Of a stretch of 64,000 nucleotides of DNA, positions 20,943-63,739 are shown one piece after another (position 1 is the stretch's first letter; each line of letters begins with the position of its first letter). The notes beneath the pieces are model-generated. The model searched no databases. It was not told the origin of the DNA and saw only the letters and a program-made list of their open reading frames with translations. Made by a program: the position numbers and the translations under genes. The stretch lies in UHGV virus genome UHGV-1352853; one strand, written 5' to 3'. This DNA comes from a virus.

Positions 20943-21083
20943 TTAATACACTTGCACAGTCCAGCCATTGTAAGAATCTACAAAGACAATCCAGTCATCT
21001 TCTGCCCATAGTCTAGAACAAACTCCTGGGGCTTTGAATCTGTATAAACCTTGTCTATAAGCTTCTTTTTTAGCTAAGGGCAT
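20943..21083 (-). CDS. hypothetical small protein (~46 aa from internal Met)
   Basis: The 106-aa frame overlaps the RNAP II gene by 194 nt. The internal start MPLAKKEAY leaves a 14 nt overlap. Confidence 0.25.
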   Translation of the reverse strand: MPLAKKEAYRQGLYRFKAPGVCSRLWAEDDWIVFVDSYNGWTVQVY

Positions 21084-22287
21084 AATCGGCCTCCAGAATG
21101 TCTTGCCAGAGGCTGTCATCCAGCTTACCAGCAGAAAACTCTTGCCCCAGTACCTGAGACAGAATGAAGCCCAGTAGATCACTCTTAGCAATGTCAGACA
21201 GAATCTGATTGTACTGACGACGCAGGTCATTACCGTAGTTAGGATGGCAACGGAAGCAGTCATGCACAGTCATTACAGGGAATGGTTTCTTAGGCAGAGT
21301 GTCAATCATATCTGCTACTACCTGACGGTCTACATAAGCAATAGTACATGGGTCAAGATAATCAATGATTGATAATGATAAGAAGCCAGATTTCTCATAG
21401 TGGCTCCATAGCTCTTGTACCTTCTCTAGGTTACCTGCAATTTCCCCATATTCTGAAGGACCTTCATCACAGAGTTCTCTCACAGCTTCCACTAAGTCAC
21501 GGTCGAAGTTACAACGACGTAGCATCTCACGTACTACCATCCCATCAATAGAGTGAGTGATGTTAGCAGAGAGCATACGAGTCTTCTCTTCAGTACCCTG
21601 AACCATACGAGTGATGTCAAATGGCTTACCTAAGAAGTTAACAGTCTGTACCTCTGGTACCATGACCTTAATGACAGCATGGAAGTTGTCAGGTAATACC
21701 CATACGTAACGATTAGCATCCGGGTTACCACATTGCAATAAGAACTTGTTCAATGCCCAAGGACCACTTGCAACTGTTTCCATTACATTCTCAAAAGTCT
21801 TGAGACGAATACCTTCACCGAATACTTCTTTAGGTTTGGCTTCTGAGCCGTAGAATGCAGTCATAACTGCCTGCTTAGTGTCACTACGTTTAATACGGGA
21901 TGCTTCACCAAGAATGTCCAGCATCTTGTGGTAGATAACTGTATAAGCATCACGACGTAACGGCTTACCATTTTCTCCAATGTAGTTAACTACGTTACAC
22001 AGTTCAGCAGCAGAACGGTCACCTGTCAGGCAAGCCAGTAACTGCAATCCTGACGATGTAGCATCCAGGGCTACGGCATACCCAATAGGCTTACCTGCTT
22101 TCATGTCTTTCCATGCGTTTATACCAGCATAGAACAGTGCAGATTCTTCAGCTTCATCTACCAGATTAAGTAGGTTAGCTTCGTTCTCATCGAACCAGGC
22201 AATACGTTCATCCCAGGTCTTTTTATCCAGACCATAGTTATTAGCAATATCTACTTTCAGGTATTCTTTAGCGGTTAACAGTTGCAT
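21070..22287 (-). CDS. phage RNA polymerase II large subunit (N4 gp16-like; T7-like RNAP palm/fingers)
   Basis: DATSSGLQ (cf. T7 DGSCSGIQ), motif B RSDTKQAVMTAFYGS, motif C VHDCF (cf. T7 HDSF). Confidence 0.8.
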   Translation of the reverse strand: MQLLTAKEYLKVDIANNYGLDKKTWDERIAWFDENEANLLNLVDEAEESALFYAGINAWKDMKAGKPIGYAVALDATSSGLQLLACLTGDRSAAELCNVVNYIGENGKPLRRDAYTVIYHKMLDILGEASRIKRSDTKQAVMTAFYGSEAKPKEVFGEGIRLKTFENVMETVASGPWALNKFLLQCGNPDANRYVWVLPDNFHAVIKVMVPEVQTVNFLGKPFDITRMVQGTEEKTRMLSANITHSIDGMVVREMLRRCNFDRDLVEAVRELCDEGPSEYGEIAGNLEKVQELWSHYEKSGFLSLSIIDYLDPCTIAYVDRQVVADMIDTLPKKPFPVMTVHDCFRCHPNYGNDLRRQYNQILSDIAKSDLLGFILSQVLGQEFSAGKLDDSLWQDILEADYALS

Positions 22288-22344
22288 TTTATGTTCCTTT
22301 TGCTTCTTGGCTCCCCACTATGGAGAGCCTGCTTATTAGATGGA

Positions 22345-22584
22345 TTAGCCAGCATTAAATGATGACAATACTATTCCTGGTTCCACACCTTCGGTGGCAA
22401 TACCCAGGTACTCAACGTGCACTTTATCAGGAGAGGAGCACCAGGCGGAAGACAGATTCCATTCTCCGTCTGGATTAATAAGGCGAGCTTCTTCTTTAGT
22501 CTTAGCAGCTACTACTGCGGAATCGTATGTATCCCATCCTGTATTTTCTTCCTGGCTAATAAGCCATAGTTTTAATCTACTCAT
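22345..22584 (-). CDS. hypothetical protein (79 aa) between the two RNAP II subunit genes
   Basis: ORF overlapping the upstream gene end by 8 nt. Confidence 0.4.
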   Translation of the reverse strand: MSRLKLWLISQEENTGWDTYDSAVVAAKTKEEARLINPDGEWNLSSAWCSSPDKVHVEYLGIATEGVEPGIVLSSFNAG

Positions 22585-23395
22585 CGTTTACTAACTCCTT
22601 ATCAGCGAACTCCAGTACAGCTTTGTTGTAACTGGTTCCCTGATAGTTGATGTGGTAGCCACAGGCATATGTACGCCCACGTTTGTCATATTTGTGAGCC
22701 AGGGAGAAGTTATTTCCTTCTTTGGTCACTAACTCCATTACTTCCTTAGCAGTACGGCTGTACTTCTCAAAGGCTTTAACACGTTTCTCATAGTCCTGAC
22801 GAGTTTCACCCTCTTTGGGTTTATCCATGTTAGGGCGAGAGTCCTTTACATAGTTAGCAACGTCCCAGTTAATACAGAGACGTTGGTTATTCATACGGTT
22901 GATATGGTCAAGACAGACATCCATCTCATGATGGTTCTTCTTGAGGATGATGCTGCCTCTGCTTTCGTAGTAACCGGTGTCACGGTTACTCATAACAGGC
23001 TTAGGAGCACTTACGATAGGCAATGGGTACTGGAATGCTTCCAGTTCCATCTGTACATCTTCACTAATCTCATAAATAACACCGAACCTGTCGATGGTAG
23101 GGTCATAGTTGAAGCAGTCATTCTCTGCCATCTTATATAGACAGTCAGCGATGTACTGAGCATCATCTGAGTGACTCATGAGAGAGCCAATCATAGTTTG
23201 AATGTCAGCTCGTTTATGTAGGGCAATCTGCACCATTGCATCAATGAGCAGCTTATAATCAATTTCTAAATAGGCAGCAAAAGCCTTAAAGTCAATTTCT
23301 TCGGAGTCCTCGAATTCCTTCCTCATGCGAGGGAGTAATTGATTTTTGTTGAAAAGGATTTCAAGTTGCTTCTGATGTTCAATAGATGAGTACAT
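22577..23395 (-). CDS. phage RNA polymerase II small subunit (N4 gp15-like; T7-like RNAP N-terminal part)
   Basis: DKRGRTY matches the T7-RNAP DxRGRxY (T/DxxGR) motif. Adjacent to the gp16-like gene. Confidence 0.7.
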   Translation of the reverse strand: MYSSIEHQKQLEILFNKNQLLPRMRKEFEDSEEIDFKAFAAYLEIDYKLLIDAMVQIALHKRADIQTMIGSLMSHSDDAQYIADCLYKMAENDCFNYDPTIDRFGVIYEISEDVQMELEAFQYPLPIVSAPKPVMSNRDTGYYESRGSIILKKNHHEMDVCLDHINRMNNQRLCINWDVANYVKDSRPNMDKPKEGETRQDYEKRVKAFEKYSRTAKEVMELVTKEGNNFSLAHKYDKRGRTYACGYHINYQGTSYNKAVLEFADKELVNDE

Positions 23396-23429
23396 CGCAT
23401 ATTCTCCTAAATGTGATTAATAACCAAAA

Positions 23430-23442
23430 GCTGCTGAGCAGC
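23430..23442. promoter_or_regulatory. hairpin gctgc-TGA-gcagc (5-6 bp stem, 3 nt loop) with the same 5' flank (ccaaaaG) as the GGA hairpin promoters; candidate vRNAP-type promoter (or weak terminator) directly upstream of RNAP II
   Basis: Plus strand taaCCAAAAGctgcTGAgcagct. Spacing and flank match the three early hairpins (ccataaG-nnGC-GGA-GCnn-C). The centre-G and stem-G positions are conserved. The minus-strand RNA also shows UUUUGGUU after the stem. Confidence 0.4.
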
Positions 23443-27493: not shown

Positions 27494-27685
27494 TTATTTG
27501 TTTCCTTTATGAAGTTTACGGATTTGTTTACGAGTAGGTTTAGCTACAAAGAAGTGGTCATAATGCTGACCATTCTTATCTTCTACAGATACCTGCCAAC
27601 GGGCATTCAGTGACATCTTACTGCCCCAAGGTTGCAACGTAACAATCAACTTCTGTGAGTTATAACGGTTACATACTGTACGCAT
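27494..27685 (-). CDS. small basic protein, paralogue of 28346..28630 (shared ..QHY...F.AKPT+KQIRKL motif)
   Basis: Seen directly: FVAKPTRKQIRKLHKG in this ORF against FPAKPTKKQIRKLRRQ in 28346..28630. Confidence 0.5.
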   Translation of the reverse strand: MRTVCNRYNSQKLIVTLQPWGSKMSLNARWQVSVEDKNGQHYDHFFVAKPTRKQIRKLHKGNK

Positions 27686-27790
27686 AATGGTTACTCCTTC
27701 ATCTAATATAAATCTATATCTACCTGGTTACTGTTTCAGTACCCTTCGTCTAAAGATACTCAAAAAGTAGAAATAGCTTATCGTCTAGTT

Positions 27791-27820
27791 AAAAATAAAA
27801 GACTCCCCGAAGGGAGTCTT
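27791..27820 (-). terminator. rho-independent terminator (minus strand, UUCG tetraloop)
   Basis: Stem gactccc/gggagtc with loop cgaa (UUCG on the minus strand). Minus RNA followed by UUUUAUUUUU. Sits after the stop at 27829. Confidence 0.7.
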
Positions 27821-27828
27821 ATGGTTGA

Positions 27829-28212
27829 TTAGAAAGTCAGTTTACGAGCATATTTATTCTCGTCTGCTGGGATGTCAGCAGCCTCTGCTTTCACACGACG
27901 AAGCTGAACTTGCAGGTTAATGATACCTTCTTCACCTGGTTCCAGGTTCTGAGCATATTCGATTAACTGTTCCAGCAAGTCATTCTGTGCACAACGCATA
28001 GCACGGAAGTCAGCATTGCTGCTATTAGTAGGCAGCGGTTCCTGAGTATCCAGTGGAATACCAGTAGGCAATGAGATGAATTTCTCATCATCAGAGCCTT
28101 CATTAGCTACATAACCAATGTTCAGCCAGAACTGAGCTTTAGGCTTATCAGTTTTAGCAGTAGAAGTAGCAGCAGCGTTAGATTGACCGAAAGTGAATTT
28201 TTGAATAGACAT
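27829..28212 (-). CDS. early protein, hypothetical (127 aa from MSIQKF...)
   Basis: Start at 28212, preceded by GGAGAG 7 nt upstream. The longer 160-aa frame is less likely. Confidence 0.45.
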
Positions 28213-28326
28213 TTTGTACTCTCCAGATAAATGATTGTTTGATTTATGGGTTTGTCCGTCGGTGACTAAACCCAAGAAAAGACTTAAGATTTCAATGATT
28301 AGTGGATGCATTTACATCATCCATAA

Positions 28327-28339
28327 GACGCGGAGCGTC
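28327..28339. promoter_or_regulatory. vRNAP-type hairpin promoter (5 bp stem gacgc/gcgtc, loop GGA) on the template (plus) strand; leftward transcription
   Basis: atccataaGACGC-GGA-GCGTCtgattttt. Same architecture as the N4 early promoters (5-7 bp stem, 3-nt loop, central purine). The flank matches the N4 P2 sequence CATCCAAAAGAAGCGGAGCTTC as recalled from memory. Confidence 0.6.
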
Positions 28340-28345
28340 TGATTT

Positions 28346-28630
28346 TTAAGACAAACGTTTAAGTTGTAATTCATTTGCTTCATACATACAAAATGGGTCA
28401 ATAACCCATTCACTCTCGGTCCACATCTTGGCTTCCTTACGGAACTGGCGACGTAGCTTACGGATTTGTTTCTTTGTAGGTTTAGCAGGGAATAAGTGGC
28501 AAGCAACATAGTGCTGTCTCTCTGTTACGTTAGTAATCTCTGAGAACCAAAGATTCCACTGAGAATCCATCTTACCTAACAATCCACCATTGTTACTCTT
28601 ATTTGCAAACAGGGAAGTTTGAATACGCAT
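28346..28630 (-). CDS. small basic protein (94 aa), paralogue of 27494..27685; C-terminus ...ELQLKRLS
   Basis: ORF immediately downstream of hairpin promoter (b). Confidence 0.5.
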   Translation of the reverse strand: MRIQTSLFANKSNNGGLLGKMDSQWNLWFSEITNVTERQHYVACHLFPAKPTKKQIRKLRRQFRKEAKMWTESEWVIDPFCMYEANELQLKRLS

Positions 28631-28664
28631 GGTTTTATCTCCAATAGTTAAATGATATCCAATA

Positions 28665-28677
28665 GAAGCGGAGCTTC
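28665..28677. promoter_or_regulatory. vRNAP-type hairpin promoter (gaagc-GGA-gcttc), template strand; leftward transcription
   Basis: atccaataGAAGC-GGA-GCTTCttggttttt. Near-identical to the N4 P2 sequence as recalled. Confidence 0.6.
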
Positions 28678-28684
28678 TTGGTTT

Positions 28685-29026
28685 TTAAGACAAACGCTTA
28701 AGCAATTCTGCCTTAGCAGCTTTATACTCTTCCTCAATTCCAGGCCAATCTTCCCGGTCTTGAGAACCAAGCATTTCATGGGCACGGACAGCTTTCTCAT
28801 ACCGTTCCAGTAGTTTTTCCTTATCTGGCTCTCCTTCACAGGATTCCCATTGCCATACATGACCAGTTAGTGGAACCAGTTCTCCTTTCGTAAAGTAAGG
28901 ATTATTGTCCATATTCTTGACAGTAGAATCTTCGGTAAGACAGATACGTTCTCCTTCCAATTCTCCTTCAATAATTGTTCCAACAGGAACAGCAGCAGAA
29001 CCTTTGATACAACGGAATTTAGTCAT
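28685..29026 (-). CDS. hypothetical early protein (113 aa); C-terminus ...AELLKRLS
   Basis: ORF. The 3' end and downstream flank are duplicated at the 3' end of 28346..28630. Confidence 0.5.
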   Translation of the reverse strand: MTKFRCIKGSAAVPVGTIIEGELEGERICLTEDSTVKNMDNNPYFTKGELVPLTGHVWQWESCEGEPDKEKLLERYEKAVRAHEMLGSQDREDWPGIEEEYKAAKAELLKRLS

Positions 29027-29116
29027 GATTTTCTATCCTTAAAGTAGAATAACTATCTATTTAGTTGAACTATCTAATGTTCAAAACAGGAGACTCCGAA
29101 GAGCCTCCTAGATGAC

Positions 29117-29440
29117 TTAGTCTTTAGTCAGGATGTCAATTACTTTTGAATATTCTGCGTTATAGATACGAGCGTTCTCAGAATCCTTACAGAAATCTTC
29201 AATACTTTTCTTACGCAGAGTCTCAGTCATAGCTGTTTCTTCAGCTAATTTATTAACGAATGTATGCATTTCTAATTTAGTACGAATGGCTTGTTTCTCT
29301 GCCATAGTACTTACATATGAATTAAGCATACCTACTGCTTTAGTTGCTGTACCAAATGTATCTGCAACAGTAGTAGCAGCAGAGTTAACAGTACCCAGTA
29401 AAGTTCCTGCGGTCATACGTACAGTAGCGGTAGTAGTCAT
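29117..29440 (-). CDS. hypothetical early protein (107 aa); first gene downstream of hairpin promoter (c)
   Basis: ORF. Confidence 0.5.
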   Translation of the reverse strand: MTTTATVRMTAGTLLGTVNSAATTVADTFGTATKAVGMLNSYVSTMAEKQAIRTKLEMHTFVNKLAEETAMTETLRKKSIEDFCKDSENARIYNAEYSKVIDILTKD

Positions 29441-29483
29441 GATGATAGCTCCAATAGTTGATGATAGGACGACATGTCCATAA

Positions 29484-29496
29484 GTTGCGGAGCAAC
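29484..29496. promoter_or_regulatory. vRNAP-type hairpin promoter (gttgc-GGA-gcaac), template strand; leftward transcription
   Basis: gtccataaGTTGC-GGA-GCAACgtgtaacg. Same flank consensus as promoters (a) and (b). Confidence 0.55.
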
Positions 29497-29600
29497 GTGT
29501 AACGTGTAAGGTGGGGTAGGGTAGTGGCTACACCGTCAACATACCGGGGGGGCTAGTTGAGTGTAAGGGTGTAGCCCCAGCCACAACACTGCTACTGTAC
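29497..29600. repeat. repeat-rich non-coding block (gtgtaa x3, ggtagggtag, 9 bp inverted repeat ggctacacc/ggtgtagcc) inside a 415 bp ORF-free region
   Basis: Seen directly. Lies immediately upstream of the first early promoter. Confidence 0.4.
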
Positions 29601-29855
29601 ATAGCTATCACAATTTTGACATGCAAAAATATTATAGGCACTATCTCTATAAGCAGATAACTTTGAGGTATTAACATGAAAGATGGATGGGGTAACTATC
29701 TCCTATTCATCATAGCGTTTAATACTTAAAACCTCATATAGCTTACTATTTACAAGCAATGGTCCACCTACTCCTACAAAAACTAGGCTGTGTACTATCA
29801 CTGGTTCAGGTAAGCCCTTTACTGTTACATACCACATATTAATCCTTATAAGCAG

Positions 29856-30194
29856 TTAAATAGGAAGGAGCTTTCTGGTGATGATGCGTGCTATACCAGA
29901 GTAATAGTCTGGATGGTTTGGATTACCACTACTATTTCTTACGGTAGCTTCTTTAATAAACACATGAGCATAATCACCTAATGGTATGAAGACTGACCCA
30001 CCTTTTTGCAGGATAACTATCTCTGCATTGCTGTTGGTAAGTAGCTTATGTCCTTGGGCAAAGTCTGCTAACTCTCCTGGTTCCATTATTAGTGTGGAGG
30101 TTCCATAGGTCATAATGTGGATGATTGCTTTTTCTGGTTCAGAGGAATAATGCAGTAAGTCCGTACCTTTCATCCCTAGGAGTTTAACGTTCAT
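29856..30194 (-). CDS. small protein, possible divergent member of the tandem paralogue family
   Basis: ORF of similar size, tightly packed with the family. Confidence 0.35.
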   Translation of the reverse strand: MNVKLLGMKGTDLLHYSSEPEKAIIHIMTYGTSTLIMEPGELADFAQGHKLLTNSNAEIVILQKGGSVFIPLGDYAHVFIKEATVRNSSGNPNHPDYYSGIARIITRKLLPI

Positions 30195-53342: not shown

Positions 53343-53380
53343 TTCCTATATACGATATAAGTTTGAACAGGAAACATGCT

Positions 53381-56300
53381 ATGTCAACATTTGACCGTCT
53401 GGCAGGTTTCGCAGACAGCATCACTAATGCTAAGCAAGTCGATGTCTCTACTGCAACCTCTCAGAAGCAAGCTGCACAAGGGCAAAGCCCTTTCCAATTA
53501 ACCCCGGAGAATGCTTACAATCTCCAAACCGGACGAGTAGGTAATTTAGGAATCGGTGCGTTCGAACCAGGTTCTCTTCAGGCAGATTTCACTCAAGCCT
53601 CCCCATTAGAAATTCTTAATAAATACGGTAATGAGCAAGGTCTACAGATTATTAATAGCCGAGCTAATGCTGCTGATGCTGTACGTCAAGACTTATCTAA
53701 ACAACGTACTAACGCAGAAGCATTTGGCGATACTCTTTCTGGTGTTGGTCTTGGTGTTGCTAATACCCTTGGGGGCATTGCTGCTCTTGGCACAGGTCTG
53801 GTCAATGATAATGCCGGGGCATCCATTGCTTCTGGGATGGATTGGCTGAATGAAGGTGTACATAATCTACAGTCTGATGCATTGAATGCTACCCGTAAGG
53901 TTGTTCAGAATCAGAACCAGATTTCTGCACAAAAGAACCAGAAACTATACGAACAAGACATCAAAAATGGGGAGAGCAGTTTGGTTGCCTCCTTGTCTCG
54001 CATTGGTCGTGATGCTTTTGATTCTGTTGCTAATACACTTGATAACGGTATGGCTGCTACTGATGGGCTAAGTGAAGGTGTTGGTTCCCTCTTTACTGGT
54101 GGTCCACTTATCCGTGGTGTATCTGCACTCGGCAAAGTAATGGTAGGTGGTGATAAAGCCGTTAAGGGTATTACCTTAGCTGCTGAGTTAGGTTCTCGTC
54201 CTGCACAGGTTGCATTGTCTGCTGGTCGTGTTGCTGCACCTGCTATTGCAATTGGTGGTATGGAAGCTGGTGGTGCATACCAACAGACTGCTTCTGAAAT
54301 CATGAAGATGTCACATCAAGAATTAGCAAGTAAGTCTCCTGTTTATCAACAACATATTGCTGATGGTTTATCTCCTGATGAAGCTCGTCGTCAGACTGCA
54401 TCTGAAACAGGTATCATTGCTGCTGGCTTAACTGCTCCGGTTGCTGCTGCTACTGGTCCACTGGTATCTAAATTCGAACTTAATCCACTTAAGGTAGGCT
54501 CACTGGCTGGTGCAGGTTCTAACATGCTACGTGAGACTGTAGAAGAAGGTATCCAGTCTGGTACTAGTCAGTTTGCACAGAACAAGGCAATTCAGGGTAA
54601 TGTAGATACTAAGCGTGATTTGCTTAAAGGTGTTGGTGAACAAGCAGGTCTTGGTGCACTCTATGGCTTCGGTAGTGCTGGTGTTGCTCAGGCTCCAGGT
54701 GCAACTGTTAAAGCTGTTGATGCTGCTGCTGGGCCTGCTTTACGTACTACTCTGGCTGGTGCTTCCCTGGTTGGTAGTGCATTAGCAAAAGCTGCTTCCC
54801 CTATTACTAACATCCTGGTTCAACGTGGTGAAGAAGTAGCTAAGCGTAATGAACAAGCATCCCCTGTATCAGATGCTACGGTTAATGCTGCTGCGCAAGA
54901 AGCTACTGCTCAAGCAGAACAAGCACAAGCAACCGTACAGGAAGCAGTAGATGCAATGGACATTTCCCCTGAAGAGAAAGCTGCTGCTACTCAGTATGCT
55001 GCTGATTTAACTCAAGCAATGAAGTTTGACCCAGTAGAGCTAGAACAAGCTAATCCTGCAATCCGTGAAGCTGTTTCTGGTTCCACTAACCGTGTTGAAG
55101 CTATTCAGAAGATGGCTGACCTGGTTAATACTGCTGAAGACCCTAACGTTCAAATGGAAGCTGCAATTCAGATGTATGACAACATCATGTCTATGGATAG
55201 CTTCATTAACCGTGACCCGGGTGCTCTGGCTAATCTGGAACAAGGTTCCCCTGCTGCTAATATTGTTGACCAGTTCTCTGGTCTAATGGCTAACGTACAG
55301 AATACTCCAAAGGTACTTCGTGCATTCCGTGCCATTCATTCCATGATTCAGGAACAGGCTGAAGCAGGTAAACTGAAAGCTACTGAAGAAGCCAACCAAG
55401 CCCAAGCAAACAATATTGCTATGGCTGCTGATATGTCTCCAGAAGTACTGGATGCAGACTCAGTGAACATGGTTCTGAAGCACGCAAGTGAAGGTAAGAT
55501 TACGTTAGGGAATCGTCAGCGTGCTGCCCTGCAATCTGCTGCTGCTCTATTGCAAGGAGCACGAGAATTTGACGCTAAAGCAGAAGAACTGGGCTTACGT
55601 CCTCAGGACATTGTTAGTAAACAGATTAAAACCGACGAGTCTCGTTCTAATGAAGGTCAGTACTCTGCGTTGCAACATGCTAAACGCATTCGTTCTGCGT
55701 ACAACTCTGGTAACTTCGATTTGGCTTCCGCTTATCTCGACGACTTTATGAAGTTCGCCCAGCACATGCAGAATAAGGTCGGAGCGTTGAATGAGCATCT
55801 GATTTCGGGGAATGCGGATAAGAATAAGTCTGTTCATTATCAGGCTCTTACTCCCTCCCGTGAATGGGTACGTAGTCGTACTGGCCTCGGTGTCAATCCG
55901 TATGATACCAAGTCGGTTAAGTTTGCCCAGCAAGTAGGACTGGAGGCCAAAACCGTAGCTGATATTGCTAACGCACTTGCTACGGCTTACCCGGAGCTTA
56001 ATGTTTCTCATGTGAAAGTTACCCCATTGGATTCACGTCTGGACAAACCTGCTGCCCAGGTAGTTAAAGAGTTCCGTCAAGGTGGTCTTGATGCCACTCA
56101 ATCTCAACAGACTAATGAACCAGTGAATCAGGTTGATGAAACTCCTGTTACAAAACAGGAACCAGTTACCCCTACTGTACAGACTAAACCCTCTGTTAGT
56201 GAAGCTGTTAAAACAGAACCTGCTATTAAAGAGTCTAAACCACAGGTTGTAAAAGAACCTGAGAATCAGTCTGAAAAACAGGATGCTACCCTCACTAATG

Positions 56301-59300
56301 AGGATACCACTCAGGGAGTAGCTGAAACTAAAACGGAAATGGAAACAGTGTTCCCTGTCTATAACAACGACAAGACACCGAACCAGTTCCTGAAATCTTT
56401 TACTCTACCGGAAGAACCTAAGTCTCGTACCATTGGTTCAGAGTCCCCTTTGACTGATGTTAAGAAAGCACTGTCTTCTGTTGCTCGCTTTGAAGCATTT
56501 ACTCAAAAAGAAAATAACGCTCTCACAAGTGATGTGATTAAGCGTTATCAGGACTTATTCGATTTTGGTGAAACTCTGAAGACTACCCTGTCTGACCGTC
56601 TAGCTAAGTTCCTTGCTAACAAGAATGTTGGTAAACGCTTTGCAGAAGGTACTGAGGCTAACCGTTGGGTAGGTGGTAAGTTACTTAATATTGTAGAGAA
56701 AGATGGTGACACCTTTAAGTTCAATGACCAGTTATTAGAGACTGCTGTACTTGCTGGTCTGCAATGGCGACTGACTGCTACACAGAATGCTGCCATTAAA
56801 GACATGAAAGACGTAGCTGCTATTACTGGTGTAGAAGCATCCTTGTTACCTGATGGTATTCTGGCTGACTTTGAGAATGCTCAGACCCTGGTTGAAGCTA
56901 CTAACTCACTGGCCCAAAAGATTGAATCTTACTGGGGTTTGAATCGTAATCCAAATGCACCACTGGGTTATACCAAAGGTATCCCAATGGCAATGGCTAC
57001 AGAGATTCTGTCTTCTCTTATTGAGATGGGTGAAGTTAAAGAGTCTATGCTTGATGTGTCTGAGATTGACCCAGCCTCCAACAAGACTATTGGTCTATAT
57101 ACCATTGAGAAGCTGGATGATAACGACGCCATTAATAATTTCCCTACTGCTATTGAGGAAGCTGTCCTCGTAGAACCAGAAGAGAAAATGTACTTTGGTG
57201 ATGACATTCCTTCCGTGGCTCAAACTCAGTTACGTAACCCTGCTGTTAAGAATACCCCAGAGCAGAGGGCTGCATTGAAAGCTGAACAAGCTACCGAGTT
57301 CCGTGTACATATGCCGATGGTTAACTTCTATGAAGCATTGGGTCGTGACAACATTCTGGAACTGATGGGTGCTGGTACTCTTAATCCTGAACTACTGAAC
57401 GTGAATACCGCTAAATCACTGGAAGGTAAGAACCTGTCCGTATCTATGGCATATGATTCCCTGTTTGGTGTAATCAATCAAATTAAGGAACAAGAGAACG
57501 GTCTGGATACCCCTATTCATTACGGTTACAACATGACCCGTGTAGGTCGTATGCAGATGCTTGGTAAGAACAACCCACAATCCAGCAAGCTGGTTCGTGA
57601 GGCTATTCTGCCAACCTTCTCTACTATCGACTTGAGTAATGAAAACAGCCAAACGTTCTCTGACTTCCAGTTAGGTCTGGCTCAGGCATTAGGTATCAAG
57701 GTACATAACATGTCCCGTGAAGCTATGTCTGAAAAGTTGACCAAAGCTCTGGAAGGTAATCTGAAACCTGCTGTTGATATGATGGTTGAGTTTGATAAGT
57801 CTGGGCACTTACCTGCTGATGCAGTAGATATTCTGAAGACGTCTCTTGGTGGCGATAAATCCTTCGTAGCTCTTATGGCTCTTATGGAATATGCCCGTTA
57901 CCTGAACAGTGATGACCGTGCCAACTTTAATACCCCACTGTACGTTGAAGCCGATGGTGTAACTAACGGACCAATCAACGCAATGGTATTAATGACGGGT
58001 GGTAAGTTCACTTCAGACTGGATTAAGAATACTGCTAAAGGTGGTCTATTCTTTGGTAAAGCTGGTAAGACTATGAACGAACATCGTTCACAGGATGACA
58101 GCGTGGATTTGTATGAAGCATCTACCAACGGTCTGCAACAAGCTCTGAATGAGTTACGTACTACTTACCGTAACAACGTTCCGGTTATGAACCAGATGAA
58201 TCATCTCCAAAAGTTAATGGACCTGTTCATTAAAGACTTTAACCTGAACGAAGACGGTACTCTGGACCTGAAACGTGGTATTGCTAAAAATCCTCTGACC
58301 ATTACCATCTATGGTTCCGGTGCTCGCGGTATTGCTGGCAAGATGGTTAGTGCAATTACTGATACCATCTATGAACGCTTCAGTGACGTTCTGAAAGCAC
58401 GAGCTGCTGACCCTAGCATTTCCCCAGCTATGGCAATGTTTGGTAAGGAGGCTGCGTCTGAGGCTGATGCTCAGGCCATGCTGGATACTTTCCTTACATC
58501 TATGGAAGCACTGACTGGTAATGTTCCAGTTATGCGTAAAGGTGAGTTGTCTATTCAACAGGTAGAAGGTGCTCTGACTGGTAAGTTAGACCCTCAGAAG
58601 TTTACTGTATCTGGTAATGCTTTGAAGAACTTACAAGAGAACATGCTTCACTTGTTCGTTGAACCAATGCGTACCGGTATCCGCAATACTGTTGGAGAAG
58701 GTCTGATGCATTCTACTGAGAACTTGCAGAAGGCTACCCAGATTCAGTCTCTGGTATTGCAGGATATGTTCCAACAAGCAGTACAGACTAAGCTGGCAGA
58801 AAAAGAAAAAGACCCAACATGGAAGAAGGGGGATTTCTTAACACAGAAAGAACTGAATGAAATCCAGGAATCATTATCTCCACTGGCTCCAATGATTGAG
58901 ACTGGTTCACAGACTTTCTACATTGCCGGTAGTGAAAACACTGATGTTGCTAACCAAGTACTGGCTACCAACTTGGATGACCGTATGCGTGTGCCAATGA
59001 GCATCTATGCTCCTTCACAGGCAGGTGTTGCAGGTATTCCATTTATGACCATTGGTACTGGCGATGGCATGATGATGCAGACCCTTTCTACTATGAAAGG
59101 TGCTCCGAAGAATACCCTGAAAATCTTTGATGGTATGAACATTGGTATCAATGACATCACTGATGCAAGTCGTAAAGCTAACGAGGCTGTATATACTTCC
59201 TGGCAGGGGAATCCTATCAAGAATGTTTATGACTCCTTCTCTAAGTTCATGAAGAATGTAGACTTCAGCAAACTGTCTGATGAAACTAAACAGGCTATCG

Positions 59301-62300
59301 CTAAGTCTGCTCTGGAATATGACCAGCGTGAAGGTGCTACTGATGCCTTATTACGTGCAGGTGCTGAACAGATTGAGCGTAACTTGCGTAACATTGCTCT
59401 TGGTGTAGATATTCGCCATAAAGTAATGAACCAGGTACAGACCACTGTTGACCAGATGGCTGCTGTGGGTGCTCCTTACATTAATAACGGTAAGATTTCT
59501 TTGGAAGGTCTGACTGTAGACCAGCAAGTAGCTAAGCTGAACGAATTGTTTGATGCTGAATTAAACAAACGTCGTGATGCAGTACGTGCTGCTAAAGCAG
59601 AACCAGTGAAAGAAGTACCAGCAATGGAGCAGGTTGGTCGTGTACTGAAGTCTGGTGTACGTCTGCTGTCTAATACTGCTATCTCTAAGCTGGCTAAAGA
59701 GATGTCTCAGGAACAACAAGCAGTACTGAAAGAAGTACAGAAATCCCTTGCTGCTAAAGACTACAAGGTTGTTTACGGTACACCTTCTCAGTTGGATGCT
59801 TATGCTATTGAGAAGAATATTACTCGCCCAGCACCTGAAGATATTGAAGCTGCTGAAGCAGGTAATGCATATGGCTGGACTAACTTTGAAGATAAGACTA
59901 TCTACTTAGTTACTCCTTCCTTAGAGACTCTGGTTCATGAATTGGTACATGCTTCTACTTTTGAATCTGTACTGGCTCACTATGAGGGTACTCCTAATGA
60001 AGCAGTCCAGAATATTGAAGACCTGATGAACCAATTCCGTACTCTTGATGTTAAGGATGAAACTTCGGCAGTACGTGAAGCATACGCTGATGCTCTTAAT
60101 ACTATTAATGGTCACTTGTCTAATGGCTTCATTGAACCAGCAATGGCTAAAGCTGCTGCACTTAACGAGTACATGGCTTGGGGCTTAACCAACCGTGAAC
60201 TGATTAGTAAGCAGAAGAAAACCACTGCACTTAAGACTATGGTTCAGGCTGTGTATGAAGCAATCAAGCGTCTGATATTTGGGCGTAAGAAAGCACCAGC
60301 TAATGCAGATGATATGTTCTCCGGCTTACTGTTTAACTCATCCGTAGTTATGCGTGGTCAGGCTCCTACTGCTGCTGTAGCTAAAGATACTACCCTGTTC
60401 CATAACAAAGCATACGGTGACAATACTCGTCTGGAAGAATTAGGAAAAACCTTCGATAAGTTAATTACTGACTACATTGGTTCAGAACCAGTACAACAAG
60501 TAATTCGTAAAGGTAAGTTCTCTGATGCAGTAGTGAATGCAACTAAAGTAACTCGTGATGTTCAGGCTCATGGCTTCACTATGAATATGCAGGAACAACG
60601 TCTCTTTACTAACATCGCTGCTGCTCTGGCTACTGAAGCTGCTATTAATCCTGCTGCTTTGGCTCGTGCACAGGAATACTATACGCATGTTACCAAGAAC
60701 CTGACCGTTGAAGCATTCATGACTGACCCAGATAGTACTAACCCTGCTGACCGTTATTACGCTCAACAGAAGTTCGATACCATCATGGGTGCTAACAATA
60801 TTGAGTTTGATGCACAAGGCCGTTCTTCCTTACTACCTACCTTTGTCGGTCTGGCAATGGTAAGCGAAGAAGTACGTAAAGTACTGGCAGACATTCCTGT
60901 TATGAAAGCAGATAAGCAATCTGGTAATACTGTTGATGCAATGCTTACTAACATCGGTACTGCTGCAATGGCTAGTCTGAATGCTCGTGTAGCTGGTGAT
61001 ACCAAGGCTACCAATGTGCAAGAAGGTATGGATGCACTGGCTCAGACAATCATGCAGACTAGTTTAAATGCACAGTCCTTCTATGATTCCGTTGCTACTC
61101 CTAGTGGTAATGCTATTGACCGTGCTAACCAGTATCTGGTGGACTCTATTGATGTATTGTCTACCCGTGCTTTAGAAGGTGCTCGTGAAGTTGCAGCTAA
61201 TACCAAGAACCCGTTGGTTAAAGGTGCTGCTCATGCTGCACAACTGATTGCTGCCATTGCTACGGAGAAGAATGGAGCAATCGTAGCTGAAGGTGTTATG
61301 GCTGCAATGAACCAGGGTAAAGTATGGCAACCTTTCCATGACCTGGTTAATGACTTAACTGGTCGTACTAAGAGCAATGCTTCTGTATACGATTTGATTA
61401 AGGCAGTACGTGCACAGGTACAGGCTGACCGTCAACAATTCCGTGAACATTTGCCTACCACTATCGCCTCTAAGTTCAGCCGTAAACTGACTAATGAAGA
61501 GTGGAAAGCAATGCATACCGGTATGGGTAAAACTGACTTAGCTGCCCTGCGTGACACTATGTCTTTGGCTGAAATACGTGACCTGCTGACCGACCAGAAG
61601 ATTGTTGACCGTGAGGTGAATAAGCTGGAAGCAGATTTGCAGAAACAAGCTGGACGTAACTGGCCTCTAATTAGTCGTAAATCTAAGCAACTGGCTCAGT
61701 ACATGATTAATGGCACAGTTGGTAATAACCTGCTGCGTAATGCTACTGCAATTTCTCGTTTGCTGGGAGAACGTCAGGCTGCACGTTCTACTGTAGATGT
61801 AGCTCAACTGGACAAATTGATTACCCTGTATGCACTGGAAGCAATGAGTAAGTCTGACCGCGAAACATTATCTTCACTGGCTCAGACAGAAGTTGATGGA
61901 ATGGACTTTGCTACATCTTATCTGGTTGGGCAGCGTAAAGATGAAATGGCTAAAGCCAAATCCGATACTCGTGCAATCCTGAACCAGTACAAAGGTTACA
62001 TTCCTGATGAGACTAAACAAGGTGTTAACCTGATTGTTGCTGAAGATAGTCAATTTGCTGATTTAATTGAGAAGTCTTATGTGCGACTGGGTACTTATCA
62101 GGGTAGCTCTGCTAATCGTGGTCCAGCACGCAGCTACTACTTTGCACCAGTACAGGCACAGGCTCCTTTCTCACAGGGTATTCTACAGAACGTTCGTAAT
62201 ACTGCTGGTGGTGTAGACCTTGGTACAGGCTTTACGATGGGTACAATGGTAGCTGGTCGTATCACTGACAAGCCTTCCGTAGACCGTATCACTAAAGCAC

Positions 62301-63739
62301 TGGCTCGTGGTGAACGTGGTAATGAACCACTGCTGCCTGTGTATGATGACAAAGGTAATGTAGTTGCCTATGAGCAATCTATTGACCCTAACATGCTGAA
62401 GCACATTGAGGGTGAGAACCATCTTGCTCGTGCAATTGGTGTATGGCGTGGTCGTCAGGTAGAGGAAGCTAAGGCCCAGCGTTTCAACGATATGCTGATT
62501 GAAAATCTGCATAGCATGTACGAGAACGACATTAAAATGTCTGCCTCTAATAAGTCCCAGTACGTTAACCTTCTTGGTTCTAAACTGGACCCTGTAACTG
62601 CTGATGCCCTTAAACTGATGAACACCGAAACACGTCAGAAAGCAGAAAGTCTGTTTGGCGAAGGTGAATTGTGGGTTCGTCGTGACATGCTTAATGATGC
62701 GCTGGGTTATCGTGCAGCTTCTGTAGGTGATGCCTGGTCTGGTAATTCTCGTTGGTCACCGGAAACATTGGATACCTTCAAGAAAGCTATGTTGGGTGTC
62801 TTTGGTAACCGTGCTTATAAGTACGTAATGGGTGGTGAGAACCTGGTTCAGAACTTAGTTAAAGAAGCCAAGACACTGATTGTAGTTAAGTCAGTAGTTG
62901 TACCTGCTGTTAACTTCTTGGCTAACCTTTACCAGATGGTTGGTCGTGGTGTACCTGTTAAGAACATTGCTAAGAGCATTCCACAGAAGACTGCTGAGAT
63001 TAACCAGTACCTGAAATCTCGTCTGCGTCAGGTAGATGCAGAAGCAGAATTACGTGCAGCTACTAACCCGAACCAGATTCGTAAGCTTAAGGCTGAGATT
63101 CAGTCCATAACTGATAGCCATAAGCGTATGAGTATCTGGCCTTTGTTAGAAGCTGGTGAGTTCTCTTCAATTGCAGACGCAGGTATTGGACGTGATGACA
63201 TCCTTATTACTGAAGGTAAACTTCACGAATACATGGATAAGCTGGCTGATAAGTTACCTAAGTCTGTTCGTAATGCAGGTCGTTATGCACTTATCACCAA
63301 GGATACTGCTCTATTCCAGGGTATCCAGAAGACGGTTGAGTACTCTGACTTTATTGCTAAAGCAATCATTTATGATGACTTAACTCAGCGTAAAGGTAAG
63401 ACTCGTGAAGAAGCACTTGGACGTGTAACAGAAGAGTTCATTAACTATGACCGTTTGCCTGGTCGTTTCCGTGGATATATGGAAAGTGTCGGTTTAATGT
63501 GGTTCTATAACTTTAAGATACGTTCTGCAAAAATCGCAGTGTCCATGATTCGCAACAACCCTGTACATGCAGCTATGGCTATGTTGGCTCCAACTCCTAC
63601 CATGTTTGGTAATGTTGGTTTACCTATTCAGGACAACATCTTCAGTATTGCTGCACAAGGCAATCTCGGTTACTCCTGGGGCTTTGGTCAGGGGCTTCGT
63701 GCTCACAACCTAAACCCTTGGATAAATCTGGTAAACTAA
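53381..63739 (+). CDS. virion-encapsidated RNA polymerase (N4 gp50-like vRNAP), ~3452 aa
   Basis: Giant ORF of N4-vRNAP size. Central region carries T7-like RNAP motifs (DGVTNGPIN; KNPLTITIYGSG motif B-like). Start at ATG 53381 with AGGAAA SD. Confidence 0.9.
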   Translation: MSTFDRLAGFADSITNAKQVDVSTATSQKQAAQGQSPFQLTPENAYNLQTGRVGNLGIGAFEPGSLQADFTQASPLEILNKYGNEQGLQIINSRANAADAVRQDLSKQRTNAEAFGDTLSGVGLGVANTLGGIAALGTGLVNDNAGASIASGMDWLNEGVHNLQSDALNATRKVVQNQNQISAQKNQKLYEQDIKNGESSLVASLSRIGRDAFDSVANTLDNGMAATDGLSEGVGSLFTGGPLIRGVSALGKVMVGGDKAVKGITLAAELGSRPAQVALSAGRVAAPAIAIGGMEAGGAYQQTASEIMKMSHQELASKSPVYQQHIADGLSPDEARRQTASETGIIAAGLTAPVAAATGPLVSKFELNPLKVGSLAGAGSNMLRETVEEGIQSGTSQFAQNKAIQGNVDTKRDLLKGVGEQAGLGALYGFGSAGVAQAPGATVKAVDAAAGPALRTTLAGASLVGSALAKAASPITNILVQRGEEVAKRNEQASPVSDATVNAAAQEATAQAEQAQATVQEAVDAMDISPEEKAAATQYAADLTQAMKFDPVELEQANPAIREAVSGSTNRVEAIQKMADLVNTAEDPNVQMEAAIQMYDNIMSMDSFINRDPGALANLEQGSPAANIVDQFSGLMANVQNTPKVLRAFRAIHSMIQEQAEAGKLKATEEANQAQANNIAMAADMSPEVLDADSVNMVLKHASEGKITLGNRQRAALQSAAALLQGAREFDAKAEELGLRPQDIVSKQIKTDESRSNEGQYSALQHAKRIRSAYNSGNFDLASAYLDDFMKFAQHMQNKVGALNEHLISGNADKNKSVHYQALTPSREWVRSRTGLGVNPYDTKSVKFAQQVGLEAKTVADIANALATAYPELNVSHVKVTPLDSRLDKPAAQVVKEFRQGGLDATQSQQTNEPVNQVDETPVTKQEPVTPTVQTKPSVSEAVKTEPAIKESKPQVVKEPENQSEKQDATLTNEDTTQGVAETKTEMETVFPVYNNDKTPNQFLKSFTLPEEPKSRTIGSESPLTDVKKALSSVARFEAFTQKENNALTSDVIKRYQDLFDFGETLKTTLSDRLAKFLANKNVGKRFAEGTEANRWVGGKLLNIVEKDGDTFKFNDQLLETAVLAGLQWRLTATQNAAIKDMKDVAAITGVEASLLPDGILADFENAQTLVEATNSLAQKIESYWGLNRNPNAPLGYTKGIPMAMATEILSSLIEMGEVKESMLDVSEIDPASNKTIGLYTIEKLDDNDAINNFPTAIEEAVLVEPEEKMYFGDDIPSVAQTQLRNPAVKNTPEQRAALKAEQATEFRVHMPMVNFYEALGRDNILELMGAGTLNPELLNVNTAKSLEGKNLSVSMAYDSLFGVINQIKEQENGLDTPIHYGYNMTRVGRMQMLGKNNPQSSKLVREAILPTFSTIDLSNENSQTFSDFQLGLAQALGIKVHNMSREAMSEKLTKALEGNLKPAVDMMVEFDKSGHLPADAVDILKTSLGGDKSFVALMALMEYARYLNSDDRANFNTPLYVEADGVTNGPINAMVLMTGGKFTSDWIKNTAKGGLFFGKAGKTMNEHRSQDDSVDLYEASTNGLQQALNELRTTYRNNVPVMNQMNHLQKLMDLFIKDFNLNEDGTLDLKRGIAKNPLTITIYGSGARGIAGKMVSAITDTIYERFSDVLKARAADPSISPAMAMFGKEAASEADAQAMLDTFLTSMEALTGNVPVMRKGELSIQQVEGALTGKLDPQKFTVSGNALKNLQENMLHLFVEPMRTGIRNTVGEGLMHSTENLQKATQIQSLVLQDMFQQAVQTKLAEKEKDPTWKKGDFLTQKELNEIQESLSPLAPMIETGSQTFYIAGSENTDVANQVLATNLDDRMRVPMSIYAPSQAGVAGIPFMTIGTGDGMMMQTLSTMKGAPKNTLKIFDGMNIGINDITDASRKANEAVYTSWQGNPIKNVYDSFSKFMKNVDFSKLSDETKQAIAKSALEYDQREGATDALLRAGAEQIERNLRNIALGVDIRHKVMNQVQTTVDQMAAVGAPYINNGKISLEGLTVDQQVAKLNELFDAELNKRRDAVRAAKAEPVKEVPAMEQVGRVLKSGVRLLSNTAISKLAKEMSQEQQAVLKEVQKSLAAKDYKVVYGTPSQLDAYAIEKNITRPAPEDIEAAEAGNAYGWTNFEDKTIYLVTPSLETLVHELVHASTFESVLAHYEGTPNEAVQNIEDLMNQFRTLDVKDETSAVREAYADALNTINGHLSNGFIEPAMAKAAALNEYMAWGLTNRELISKQKKTTALKTMVQAVYEAIKRLIFGRKKAPANADDMFSGLLFNSSVVMRGQAPTAAVAKDTTLFHNKAYGDNTRLEELGKTFDKLITDYIGSEPVQQVIRKGKFSDAVVNATKVTRDVQAHGFTMNMQEQRLFTNIAAALATEAAINPAALARAQEYYTHVTKNLTVEAFMTDPDSTNPADRYYAQQKFDTIMGANNIEFDAQGRSSLLPTFVGLAMVSEEVRKVLADIPVMKADKQSGNTVDAMLTNIGTAAMASLNARVAGDTKATNVQEGMDALAQTIMQTSLNAQSFYDSVATPSGNAIDRANQYLVDSIDVLSTRALEGAREVAANTKNPLVKGAAHAAQLIAAIATEKNGAIVAEGVMAAMNQGKVWQPFHDLVNDLTGRTKSNASVYDLIKAVRAQVQADRQQFREHLPTTIASKFSRKLTNEEWKAMHTGMGKTDLAALRDTMSLAEIRDLLTDQKIVDREVNKLEADLQKQAGRNWPLISRKSKQLAQYMINGTVGNNLLRNATAISRLLGERQAARSTVDVAQLDKLITLYALEAMSKSDRETLSSLAQTEVDGMDFATSYLVGQRKDEMAKAKSDTRAILNQYKGYIPDETKQGVNLIVAEDSQFADLIEKSYVRLGTYQGSSANRGPARSYYFAPVQAQAPFSQGILQNVRNTAGGVDLGTGFTMGTMVAGRITDKPSVDRITKALARGERGNEPLLPVYDDKGNVVAYEQSIDPNMLKHIEGENHLARAIGVWRGRQVEEAKAQRFNDMLIENLHSMYENDIKMSASNKSQYVNLLGSKLDPVTADALKLMNTETRQKAESLFGEGELWVRRDMLNDALGYRAASVGDAWSGNSRWSPETLDTFKKAMLGVFGNRAYKYVMGGENLVQNLVKEAKTLIVVKSVVVPAVNFLANLYQMVGRGVPVKNIAKSIPQKTAEINQYLKSRLRQVDAEAELRAATNPNQIRKLKAEIQSITDSHKRMSIWPLLEAGEFSSIADAGIGRDDILITEGKLHEYMDKLADKLPKSVRNAGRYALITKDTALFQGIQKTVEYSDFIAKAIIYDDLTQRKGKTREEALGRVTEEFINYDRLPGRFRGYMESVGLMWFYNFKIRSAKIAVSMIRNNPVHAAMAMLAPTPTMFGNVGLPIQDNIFSIAAQGNLGYSWGFGQGLRAHNLNPWINLVN

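Follow-up and report, generated by a model that had tools for sequence, protein, structure and literature searches.

The three GGA-loop hairpins at the early end of this phage genome are very probably promoters for a virion-carried T7-like RNA polymerase (vRNAP) of the coliphage N4 type, a reading that comes from sequence comparison. An initial annotation of the window (the whole stretch of 64,000 nucleotides from virus genome UHGV-1352853) had counted three such sites. Those three stand; a fourth, at 23424-23442 and beyond the region which that annotation covered, had been missed. All four belong to a promoter type that is already known, and the finding is an ordinary one; the hairpins are direct counterparts of the well-studied N4 promoters. 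It fixes the early transcription map of the phage, on which four start sites are predicted and two terminators and the left genome end are placed, and indicates that the N4 promoter rules carry over unchanged to the G7C-like genus. Two leads for specialists come with it: a turnover, as if by cassettes, of single genes lying between conserved promoter modules, and a natural -10T variant of the third N4 promoter. Neither alters the known workings of these promoters.

The hairpins come from a circularly permuted assembly of an N4-like E. coli phage, a G7C-like relative of N4. It belongs to Gamaleyavirus, and its identity with IME11, U1G and SP5M is about 90%. For the leftward early genes, the plus strand serves as template. 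All four sites fall within about 6.2 kb of the left terminus, as placed from the relatives; they sit upstream of the gp1, DUF7279, gp2 and gp15 genes, and all are oriented towards early genes (Table 1).

Table 1. Positions in the window of the predicted promoters, early genes, terminators, repeated modules and polymerase gene
Feature	Coordinates	Strand	Remarks
P1 (hairpin c)	29478..29496	+	hairpin 29484-29496; predicted +1 = C29479; would drive gp1 homologue leftward
Pb, extra promoter (hairpin b)	28659..28677	+	hairpin 28665-28677; predicted +1 = C28660
P2 (hairpin a)	28321..28339	+	hairpin 28327-28339; predicted +1 = C28322; would drive gp2 homologue
P3 counterpart	23424..23442	+	hairpin 23430-23442, GCTGC-TGA-GCAGC; flank ccaaaa; predicted +1 = C23425
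Left physical genome end (approximate)	29576..29593	.	linear records of relatives and N4 start there
gp1 homologue	29117..29440	-	107 aa; first early gene; phrog_5020
Intrinsic terminator after gp1	29087..29110	-	10-bp stem, UUCG loop, then GUUUUG
113-aa early gene	28685..29026	-	phrog_24403; ends ...AELLKRLS-stop; without own hairpin promoter
94-aa DUF7279 gene (mosaic)	28346..28630	-	residues 1-67 95% identical to 68-aa IME11 form
gp2 homologue	27829..28311	-	phrog_4099; 160 aa from ATG 28311, 127 aa from ATG 28212
Intrinsic terminator after gp2	27799..27820	-	9-bp stem, UUCG loop, then U-run; -15 kcal/mol, z = -4.57
RNAPII genes, downstream of P3 counterpart	21070..23395	-	gp15-like 22577-23395, gp16-like 21070-22287
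Module A	28319..28363	+	leader start, P2 hairpin, T-run, stop and last five codons (LKRLS-stop) of 94-aa gene
Module B	28656..28702	+	leader start, Pb hairpin, T-run, stop and last five codons (LKRLS-stop) of 113-aa gene
Virion RNA polymerase	53363..63739	+	3458 aa; 67% identical to N4 gp50, 71% in mini-vRNAP domain

The hairpins and the N4 promoter determinants

The initial annotation gave the three hairpins exactly in sequence, coordinates and strand: GACGC-GGA-GCGTC (a), GAAGC-GGA-GCTTC (b) and GTTGC-GGA-GCAAC (c). The flank consensus that it had drawn for them, CCAWWAGNNGCGGAGCNNC, also stands, with three exact matches and one single-mismatch match where 0.02 are expected with up to one mismatch allowed. 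When both strands of the 64 kb are searched, their core heptamer, GCGGAGC, is found at a, b and c and nowhere else, and the entire window holds only 10 hairpins of the form NNNGC-NNN-GCNNN. The three are clustered within 1.2 kb in one orientation. Stems are perfect over 5 bp at these sites and at the one beginning at 23430; those of a and b can be extended from the 5 bp first assigned to 6 bp. The spacing of 20-45 nt to the gene start that had been claimed holds for b and c (35 and 44 nt from the ATG), but not for a, which lies 16 nt away.

Five-base stems are short, of course, and the hairpins might be palindromes whose likeness to N4 promoters is accidental. DNA folding with standard parameters gives them only modest stability (-4.6 to -5.7 kcal/mol), and the z-score of c, taken alone, is an unremarkable -1.0. 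Standard DNA parameters may, however, miss the special stability reported for GNA mini-hairpins. Chance is nevertheless scarcely credible as an explanation of three consensus matches so far above expectation, so tightly clustered and so uniformly oriented. It is contradicted, and already refuted, by the comparative data given below, where position is conserved and stem changes are compensatory in 19 relatives, and where the template strand is favored 67 to 0.

Mini-hairpin DNA of the form GCGNAGC is exceptionally stable, with a sheared G:A pair, and the N4 promoter has been cited as a natural example (PMC13037366). Hairpins a, b and c share this motif, but the term describes a structure and no genetic element, and the P3 counterpart, with the core GCTGAGC, lies outside it.

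The published determinants of an N4 promoter are C at +1, G at -8 and -10, A or G at -11, a loop with 5' G and 3' A, and a C:G closing pair (PMC4496689). Hairpins a, b and c are template-strand inverted repeats with stems in the 5-7 bp range and 3-nt loops, and each has +1C, -8G, -10G, -11G, -12A and the C:G closing pair. The loop rule, G(-10) R(-11) A(-12) closed by C(-9):G(-13), appears in them as GC-GGA-GC. The -8G is the fourth base of every 5' arm (GACGC, GAAGC, GTTGC and, at the fourth site, GCTGC). Directly 5' of the stems stand CC-ATAA, CC-AATA, CC-ATAA and CC-AAAA, which place +1C 8 nt from -8 across a four-base A/T spacer. The exact start sites that we infer at a, b and c (28322, 28660 and 29479) are all C residues; the distance to the loop centre is 11 nt, which is that of N4 and the one that the initial annotation had predicted. 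The predicted P1 and P2 transcripts carry a covarying stem-loop that starts exactly at +1. Sigma-70-like sites in 27000-29700 number 3, against 7.3 in shuffled sequence; being rarer than in shuffles, host-type promoters therefore offer no alternative.

A comparison with the N4 promoters themselves had been asked for at the outset. Upstream of gp1, the N4 template strand reads CCATAAGTTGCGAAGCAAC; the corresponding sequences are CCAAAAGAAGCGGAGCTTC for gp2 and CCAAAAGCTGCGGAGCAGC for gp15, and those three positions are the experimentally mapped promoters P1-P3 (PMC4496689). They fit the consensus and stand before the same genes as the sites in the window; c, a and the 23430 site are the positional counterparts of N4 P1, P2 and P3. 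The proposal of N4 vRNAP-type promoters is supported. The likeness extends to every element of the type: a hairpin on the template strand, a 5-7 bp stem, a GGA or GAA loop, a GCGRAGC core, -8G, a 4-nt A/T spacer and +1C (PMC4496689). It extends as well to the setting, with gp1, gp2 and gp15 as neighbours, the left genome end, and a homologous vRNAP that shares the contact residues. The window differs from N4 in that it adds promoter b, with a gene of its own, and in that its P3 counterpart has T at -10.

P1, which lies some 100 nt inside the left terminus, differs from N4 P1 solely in its loop, GGA here against GAA there; its position is kept in the relatives, with GTTGC or CATGC as the stem. 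At P2, the stem GAAGC of N4 is replaced by GACGC, a compensatory change, and N4 P2 shares the conserved flank ggatgcatt.ac.tcatCCA on the downstream side. The extra promoter, Pb, has a stem identical to that of N4 P2. Its 30-nt leader, with a Shine-Dalgarno sequence, precedes the 94-aa DUF7279 gene, and promoter and leader together are found also in SP5M, L008 and L045.

The P3 counterpart precedes the ATG of the gp15-like RNAPII gene by 28 nt. Its loop is TGA, where N4 and 18 relatives have GGA; CU10EC is an example of a relative with the GGA form. With T instead of G at -10, it departs from the -10G and loop 5' G of the published rules. Among viral contigs, the exact TGA variant was matched elsewhere once, in contig L039; this match was rejected as a true counterpart and taken as chance, because that contig is unrelated to the window. 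A natural G-to-T change at -10 in the promoter of the RNAPII operon would test in vivo how strict the need for -10G, and for the sheared G:A pair, really is.

Covariation in relatives and the polymerase

Counting covariation among hairpins preselected for perfect pairing is, of course, circular, and such a count was discarded. Instead, the P2 counterparts of 19 relatives were aligned by position, as fixed intervals upstream of gp2 and with no hairpin filter. Every cell pairs (100%), against 18-50% in slid controls. Changes on both sides are seen at four of the five pairs, and one-sided changes at none; what stays invariant is the C:G closing pair (19/19). Only L036, with A-T at that pair, lacks the -8G; the other 18 retain it. 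GACGC, GATGC, GAAGC, GCTGC, GCCGC, GCGGC, CCTGC and GGCAC all occur as natural stems, beside GTTGC or CATGC at P1, and all pair; the stem positions that the polymerase does not contact vary freely while pairing stays.

Strand is equally regular. Over 35 related loci (397 kb), collected through the gp2 protein, all 67 sites are in the strand that serves the early genes as template, which agrees with the view of the plus strand as template that had been put forward for the leftward genes here.

Among other N4-like phages, hairpin early promoters have been predicted or mapped in LUZ7, LIT1 and PEV2 (PMC3715699) and in the Pectobacterium phages CB1, CB3 and CB4 (PMC6027278); in LUZ7, start sites were mapped by ONT-cappable-seq (PMC9163698). 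That phage has nine early starts, and it starts transcripts 13-14 nt from the hairpin centre. These promoters resemble those of the window in their short stem, their 3-nt loop with a central purine, their presence in several copies among the early genes, and a transcript that begins with G. These phages belong to distant genera, however, with another flank consensus and another spacing, and the sites of the window are much closer to N4. None of the GenBank records fetched for relatives annotates these hairpins as promoters, and Rfam families gave no match within 22000-31000.

The enzyme expected to read these promoters is the vRNAP encoded in the window itself. With contact residues taken from a review (PMC4496689), K114, R119, W129, K268, K849, K850, D901 and R904 are found conserved, and all five base-specific contact residues are kept. 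K267 of the N4 enzyme, in the beta-intercalating hairpin, is by contrast N in that of the window.

The proposed course of events follows N4. By analogy, the left genome end and the vRNAP would be first into the cell, where negative supercoiling by host gyrase would extrude each short inverted repeat. The arm on the plus (template) strand would then fold into the unusually stable GCGGAGC mini-hairpin, with its sheared G:A pair, and host SSB would leave it intact; both the extrusion and the SSB dependence are carried over from N4. The vRNAP would bind this hairpin and read -11G (through W129 and R119), -10G (K114 and D901) and -8G (R904). Here, the four A/T bases would serve as a ruler, and transcription would start with GTP opposite the C at +1. 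P1 would in this way serve gp1, Pb the DUF7279 gene, P2 gp2, and the P3 counterpart the RNAPII genes.

Early genes and terminators

The gp1 homologue has a PhAPEC7 copy annotated as similar to N4 gp1 and an L045 copy that matches Pfam Phage_N4_Gp1. The gp2 homologue has a putative N-terminal extension of 32-34 codons that is in frame in 13 relatives. The RNAPII genes match phrog_2166 (E = 1e-116) and phrog_2051 (E = 1e-175).

The hairpins might instead be only terminators, acting on leftward early read-through or, at a and b, on rightward antisense transcription. A consensus scan does find a and b terminator-like on the plus strand, as a hairpin plus T-run, and each lies 6-7 nt past the stop codon of the upstream gene. 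As leftward RNA, however, these two hairpins are weak (-7.2 and -8.2 kcal/mol) and are followed by UUAUGGAUG and UAUUGGAUA, with no U-run. The genuine terminators of gp1 and gp2 look different, with stems of 9-10 bp, UUCG loops, U-runs and energies of -15 to -18.6 kcal/mol; the one after gp1 folds at -18.6 kcal/mol (z = -3.55), and N4 has a similar hairpin sequence distal to its gp1. The T-run is missing at c, at the P3 site and at many P2 counterparts. Nor could P1 be a terminator, because it lies close to where the genome ends and has no gene upstream. On the other strand, no sizeable plus-strand gene exists between about 18.1 kb and 32.1 kb, and therefore no obvious source of rightward transcription into the hairpins. 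Only a and b, read antisense, loosely fit an intrinsic terminator; c and the site at 23430 do not. A purely terminating role is thus very improbable indeed, and the hairpins are discussed below as promoters.

Repeated modules around the DUF7279 gene

Modules A and B are direct repeats of about 45 nt that flank the 94-aa DUF7279 gene, and they are the only repeat pair of this module in the window genome. Within them, the 21-nt block shared by a and b (28343-28363 and 28682-28702), which the initial annotation had described as the same at both, differs at one position of its 21, where 0.00 such repeats are expected. Its order was described the wrong way round: on the plus strand the block lies 3' of the hairpin, and it precedes the hairpin only in the sense of leftward transcription.

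The further claim, that whole units of gene tail and promoter had been duplicated, holds with one correction. The direct repeats are there, but the tail of the 94-aa gene was not simply copied from the 113-aa gene. This 27-aa tail, which ends LKRLS-stop, is of the P0009/P0010 type. It resembles the 3' end of the 113-aa gene only weakly (E = 0.005, with a tiny database), and the idea that it is a decayed copy of that end was dropped because the same tail is native to P0009 and P0010, 93-aa proteins of a subfamily of the 94-aa gene. What the ends of the two genes clearly have in common is the last codons and the spacer only. Relative to SP5M, the DUF7279 gene has an 82-nt insertion at 28349-28430. 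A blastn search of segment 28340-28440 against GenBank phages gave no match; the origin of the tail came from a protein search.

Relatives differ at just this place. PhAPEC7, which matches 28300-28363 at 95%, and L005 have a single hybrid module where the window has A and B, and this hybrid looks like the product of recombination between the two. In L008 the place between the same Pb leader and the P2 hairpin is taken by another ORF, and IME11 has a copy of Pb with a broken closing pair. It is plausible that the repeat of gene tail and promoter is a substrate for gain or loss of the DUF7279 gene.

A wider hypothesis is possible, if not quite probable: that a hairpin promoter, a short leader and the last codons of the upstream gene together form a portable cassette in G7C-like and N4-like phages, and that recombination between such cassettes inserts, deletes or swaps single early ORFs just upstream of gp2. 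If true, this would make the cassette the phage-polymerase-promoter counterpart of the promoter-early stem-loop (PeSL) modules of T4-type phages (PMC2839356, PMC4122927). Those, too, are short repeated modules of promoter and stem-loop. They stand on either side of small non-essential ORFs, in an early region that is hypervariable, and the end-points of insertions, deletions and replacements between relatives lie inside them. There, however, a sigma-70 promoter accompanies a terminator stem-loop, whereas here the stem-loop itself would be the promoter for a phage polymerase. Further, the window genome has two repeat copies only.

One might go further and regard the unit of tail and hairpin as mainly a recombination cassette, with promoter activity at b incidental or lost. 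The hybrid module at exactly the A/B place in PhAPEC7 and L005, the ORF replacement in L008 and the broken closing pair in IME11 would all be in keeping with this. It is highly unlikely, however, given that b has all promoter determinants and a Shine-Dalgarno leader, as do its copies in SP5M, L008 and L045; that these are retained in the window and in relatives speaks for selection on promoter function. Both roles are, of course, compatible, and a functioning promoter at b may at the same time be a site of recombination.

Three hairpins and their N4 counterparts

The three hairpins of the initial annotation lie on the plus strand of the window with exactly the sequences and positions it gave (Table). 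Its shared flank consensus, CCAWWAGNNGCGGAGCNNC, is matched exactly at three places in the 64-kb window, where 0.02 matches would be expected with at most one mismatch, and the heptamer GCGGAGC is confined, over both strands, to hairpins a, b and c. Hairpins that fit NNNGC-NNN-GCNNN number just ten in the window. Chance palindromes are excluded by these match counts and by the comparative data. The stem of 5 bp that had been described holds for c; those of a and b can be extended to 6 bp.

At about 90% identity, the region matches G7C-like coliphages (Gamaleyavirus, Schitoviridae), among them IME11, U1G, SP5M and PhAPEC7. Many linear records start at about 29580 in window coordinates, which implies that the window is a circularly permuted assembly, with the left physical genome end near 29576-29593.

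Comparison with the mapped promoters P1-P3 of N4, proposed earlier as a check, finds matching sites on the N4 template strand before gp1, gp2 and gp15. Hairpin c differs from N4 P1 in the loop alone (GGA against GAA). By position, hairpin a corresponds to N4 P2; the downstream flank ggatgcatt.ac.tcatCCA is kept in both, and the stems differ by one compensatory change, A:T to C:G. The N4 P2 stem is that of hairpin b; b, however, precedes an additional gene, and is called Pb here. All three claimed sites are thus present, but a fourth, the P3 counterpart 28 nt before the gp15-like gene, had been missed.

Table. Hairpins, genes and terminators of the window, with the promoter sites of N4 (N4 coordinates)
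Feature	Sequence or size	Coordinates	Strand or direction	Remark
Hairpin a (P2)	GACGC-GGA-GCGTC	28327-28339	+	exact sequence check
Hairpin b (Pb)	GAAGC-GGA-GCTTC	28665-28677	+	exact sequence check
Hairpin c (P1)	GTTGC-GGA-GCAAC	29484-29496	+	exact sequence check
P3 counterpart	ccaaaaGCTGC-TGA-GCAGC	23424-23442		hairpin 23430-23442
N4 P1 site	CCATAAGTTGCGAAGCAAC	90-108	template strand	upstream of gp1
N4 P2 site	CCAAAAGAAGCGGAGCTTC	559-577	template strand	upstream of gp2
N4 P3 site	CCAAAAGCTGCGGAGCAGC	4548-4566	template strand	upstream of gp15
N4 gp1 homologue		29117-29440	leftward	
Terminator after gp1	9-10 bp stem class	29087-29110		UUCG loop, U-run
113-aa gene	113 aa	28685-29026	leftward	
DUF7279 gene	94 aa	28346-28630	leftward	
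gp2 homologue		27829-28311	leftward	
Terminator after gp2	9-10 bp stem class	27799-27820		UUCG loop, U-run
RNAPII subunit genes (two)		22577-23395 and 21070-22287	leftward	further on
Virion RNA polymerase gene	3458 aa	53363-63739		

Evidence for promoter function

Hairpin promoters are predicted routinely in N4-like phages (PMC3715699, PMC6027278), those of LUZ7 have been mapped experimentally (PMC9163698), and GCGGAGC, the core here, belongs to the recognised mini-hairpin DNAs (PMC13037366). The sites here are additional examples of this well-known kind of promoter. A literature search found no paper describing hairpin promoters in G7C-like phages, and none of the three annotated relatives' records covering the region (SP5M, PhAPEC7, CU10EC) annotates the hairpins as promoters; near them, the SP5M and PhAPEC7 records annotate terminators alone.

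Mutagenesis, cross-linking and crystallography have established that the virion RNA polymerase (vRNAP) of N4 recognises -11A/G, -10G, -8G and +1C, that extrusion and stability need a C:G closing pair with a loop 5'G and 3'A, and that four A residues serve as the ruler (PMC4496689). Hairpins a, b and c hold every one of these determinants. The start positions predicted earlier (28322, 28660 and 29479) fall, on a sequence check, on the C residues that the N4 rule demands.

Orientation was examined in 35 related loci (397 kb) fetched via the gp2 protein. Here the template strand of the early genes carries 67 of 67 sites that combine a hairpin, a GC-GRA-GC core and +1C; when the +1C condition is dropped, the count becomes 70 on the template strand against 2 on the other.

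For covariation, a fixed interval upstream of gp2 was aligned in 20 genomes; to avoid circularity, the sequences were not selected for hairpins. Pairing is found in all cells of this alignment, whereas slid controls pair in only 18-50%. Two-sided changes occur at four of the five P2 pairs and one-sided changes at none; the C:G closing pair is the one that does not vary. SP5M has a further stem variant, GATGC. The window vRNAP, 71% identical to that of N4 in the polymerase domain, retains K114, R119, W129, D901, R904, K849, K850 and K268, and the sole difference among the residues checked is K267 to N.

One might instead take the hairpins for transcription terminators, as a consensus scan flags a and b as terminator-like on the plus strand. 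That direction, however, is antisense to the local genes, and a sizeable plus-strand ORF is absent from about 18.1 kb to 32.1 kb. The T-run belongs to a repeated block rather than to the hairpin, and is missing at hairpin c, at P3 and at many P2 counterparts; hairpin c has no gene upstream. In the leftward RNA the hairpins fold weakly (-7.2 and -8.2 kcal/mol) with no U-run after them, unlike the true terminators after gp1 and gp2. A purely terminator role is thus very improbable. N4 homology, determinants, orientation, covariation and polymerase residues support the earlier interpretation as N4-type promoters, and these sequence comparisons make it very likely that the hairpins act as vRNAP promoters.

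Cores of the form GCGNAGC number 6 on both strands of the window against 10.2 expected, a difference that is not significant; the GGA and GAA forms occur at promoters only. The scarcity may mean that stray vRNAP sites are avoided.

The predicted P2 (28304-28322, minus) and P1 (29467-29479, minus) transcripts open at +1 with stem-loops, GGAUG...CAUCC and GGAC.UGU.GUCC, whose stems covary among relatives (GGAUUC/GAAUCC, GGGUA/UGCCC); those from Pb and P3 have none. The 3' arm of the P2 stem-loop overlaps the upstream gp2 ATG (28311), which lies 11 nt past the predicted +1 and lacks a Shine-Dalgarno sequence; the ATG at 28212 has one before it. Thirteen relatives keep the 32-34 codons between them (28212-28311, minus) as an open stretch in frame, whose length differs only in steps of three nucleotides (96, 99 or 102 nt). 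The gp2 start is given inconsistently in database records (127 aa against about 160 aa).

The P3 counterpart

The P3 counterpart has a TGA loop (loop base 23435), against GGA in N4 and 18 relatives. One of these relatives, CU10EC, is 98.9% identical over the 371-nt query around P3 (window 23250-23620). In the N4 promoter -10G contacts K114 and D901 (PMC4496689) and forms a sheared G:A pair; the window copy may for this reason be weakened, or base 23435 may be a sequencing error. Between this site and P2 there is no other hairpin promoter, so the RNAPII genes may rely on read-through.

The record of CU10EC (PQ435408.1, 12628-12860), the closest relative at this locus, holds two P1 copies separated by an N run, probably an unresolved terminal repeat of that assembly.

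Repeat modules and possible gene turnover

The 21-nt block TTTTTAAGACAAACGYTTAAG occurs twice (28343-28363 and 28682-28702), where no copy is expected. It had been said to precede hairpins a and b on the plus strand; there it lies 3' of each hairpin, and precedes it in the leftward direction of transcription only. The proposed repetition of whole gene-tail and promoter modules is borne out: modules A (28319-28363) and B (28656-28702) resemble each other from CCA to the end of TTAAG, and the likeness goes no further on either side. Their blocks differ at a single position, which exchanges one Lys codon for another.

Compared with SP5M, the window carries an 82-nt insertion (28349-28430) that extends the DUF7279 gene from 68 to 94 aa. 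The extra residues, KMWTESEWVIDPFCMYEANELQLKRLS, form the native tail of two 93-aa family members (P0009 and P0010), and the 94-aa gene is therefore a mosaic of sequences from one family. Gene order is the same in a metagenomic relative (L045): gp1, a 119-aa gene, Pb, a long DUF7279 gene, P2, gp2. The blocks there are more diverged than those of the window. PhAPEC7 and the related locus L005 have one module, whose left part matches A and right part B; 45-47 nt of it align to both window copies. Judged from sequence, this would be the product expected of recombination between two direct repeats, or of the reverse event.

Another relative (L008) has a different ORF, of 67 aa, with the conserved Pb leader on one side and the P2 hairpin on the other. 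Where relatives have an extra hairpin promoter immediately before P2, the ORF behind it comes from one of four unrelated families. This arrangement resembles the promoter-early stem-loop (PeSL) cassettes of T4-type phages (PMC2839356), a likeness drawn from few events, each of which may be a gain or a loss. Cassette-mediated gene turnover at promoters may be at work; P3, in addition, may be a natural -10T variant.

The Pb-module hairpin of IME11 (6626-6638, minus strand), before a 68-aa DUF7279 gene, reads GATGT-GGA-GCATC; since T.G replaces the C:G closing pair, this copy looks decayed or weakened.

On either side of gp2 the window has a DUF7279 (PF23945) paralogue, one of 63 aa (27494-27685, minus) and one of 94 aa (28346-28630, minus); the two share the motif KPT+KQIRKL. 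The 113-aa gene (28685-29086 region, minus) lacks its own hairpin promoter, sits between the gp1 terminator and Pb, and occupies the exact place of the P2 hairpin in N4. Its family is mosaic, with variable N-terminal halves and a conserved tail, EEYESAKAELLKRLS, that is also found in other proteins.
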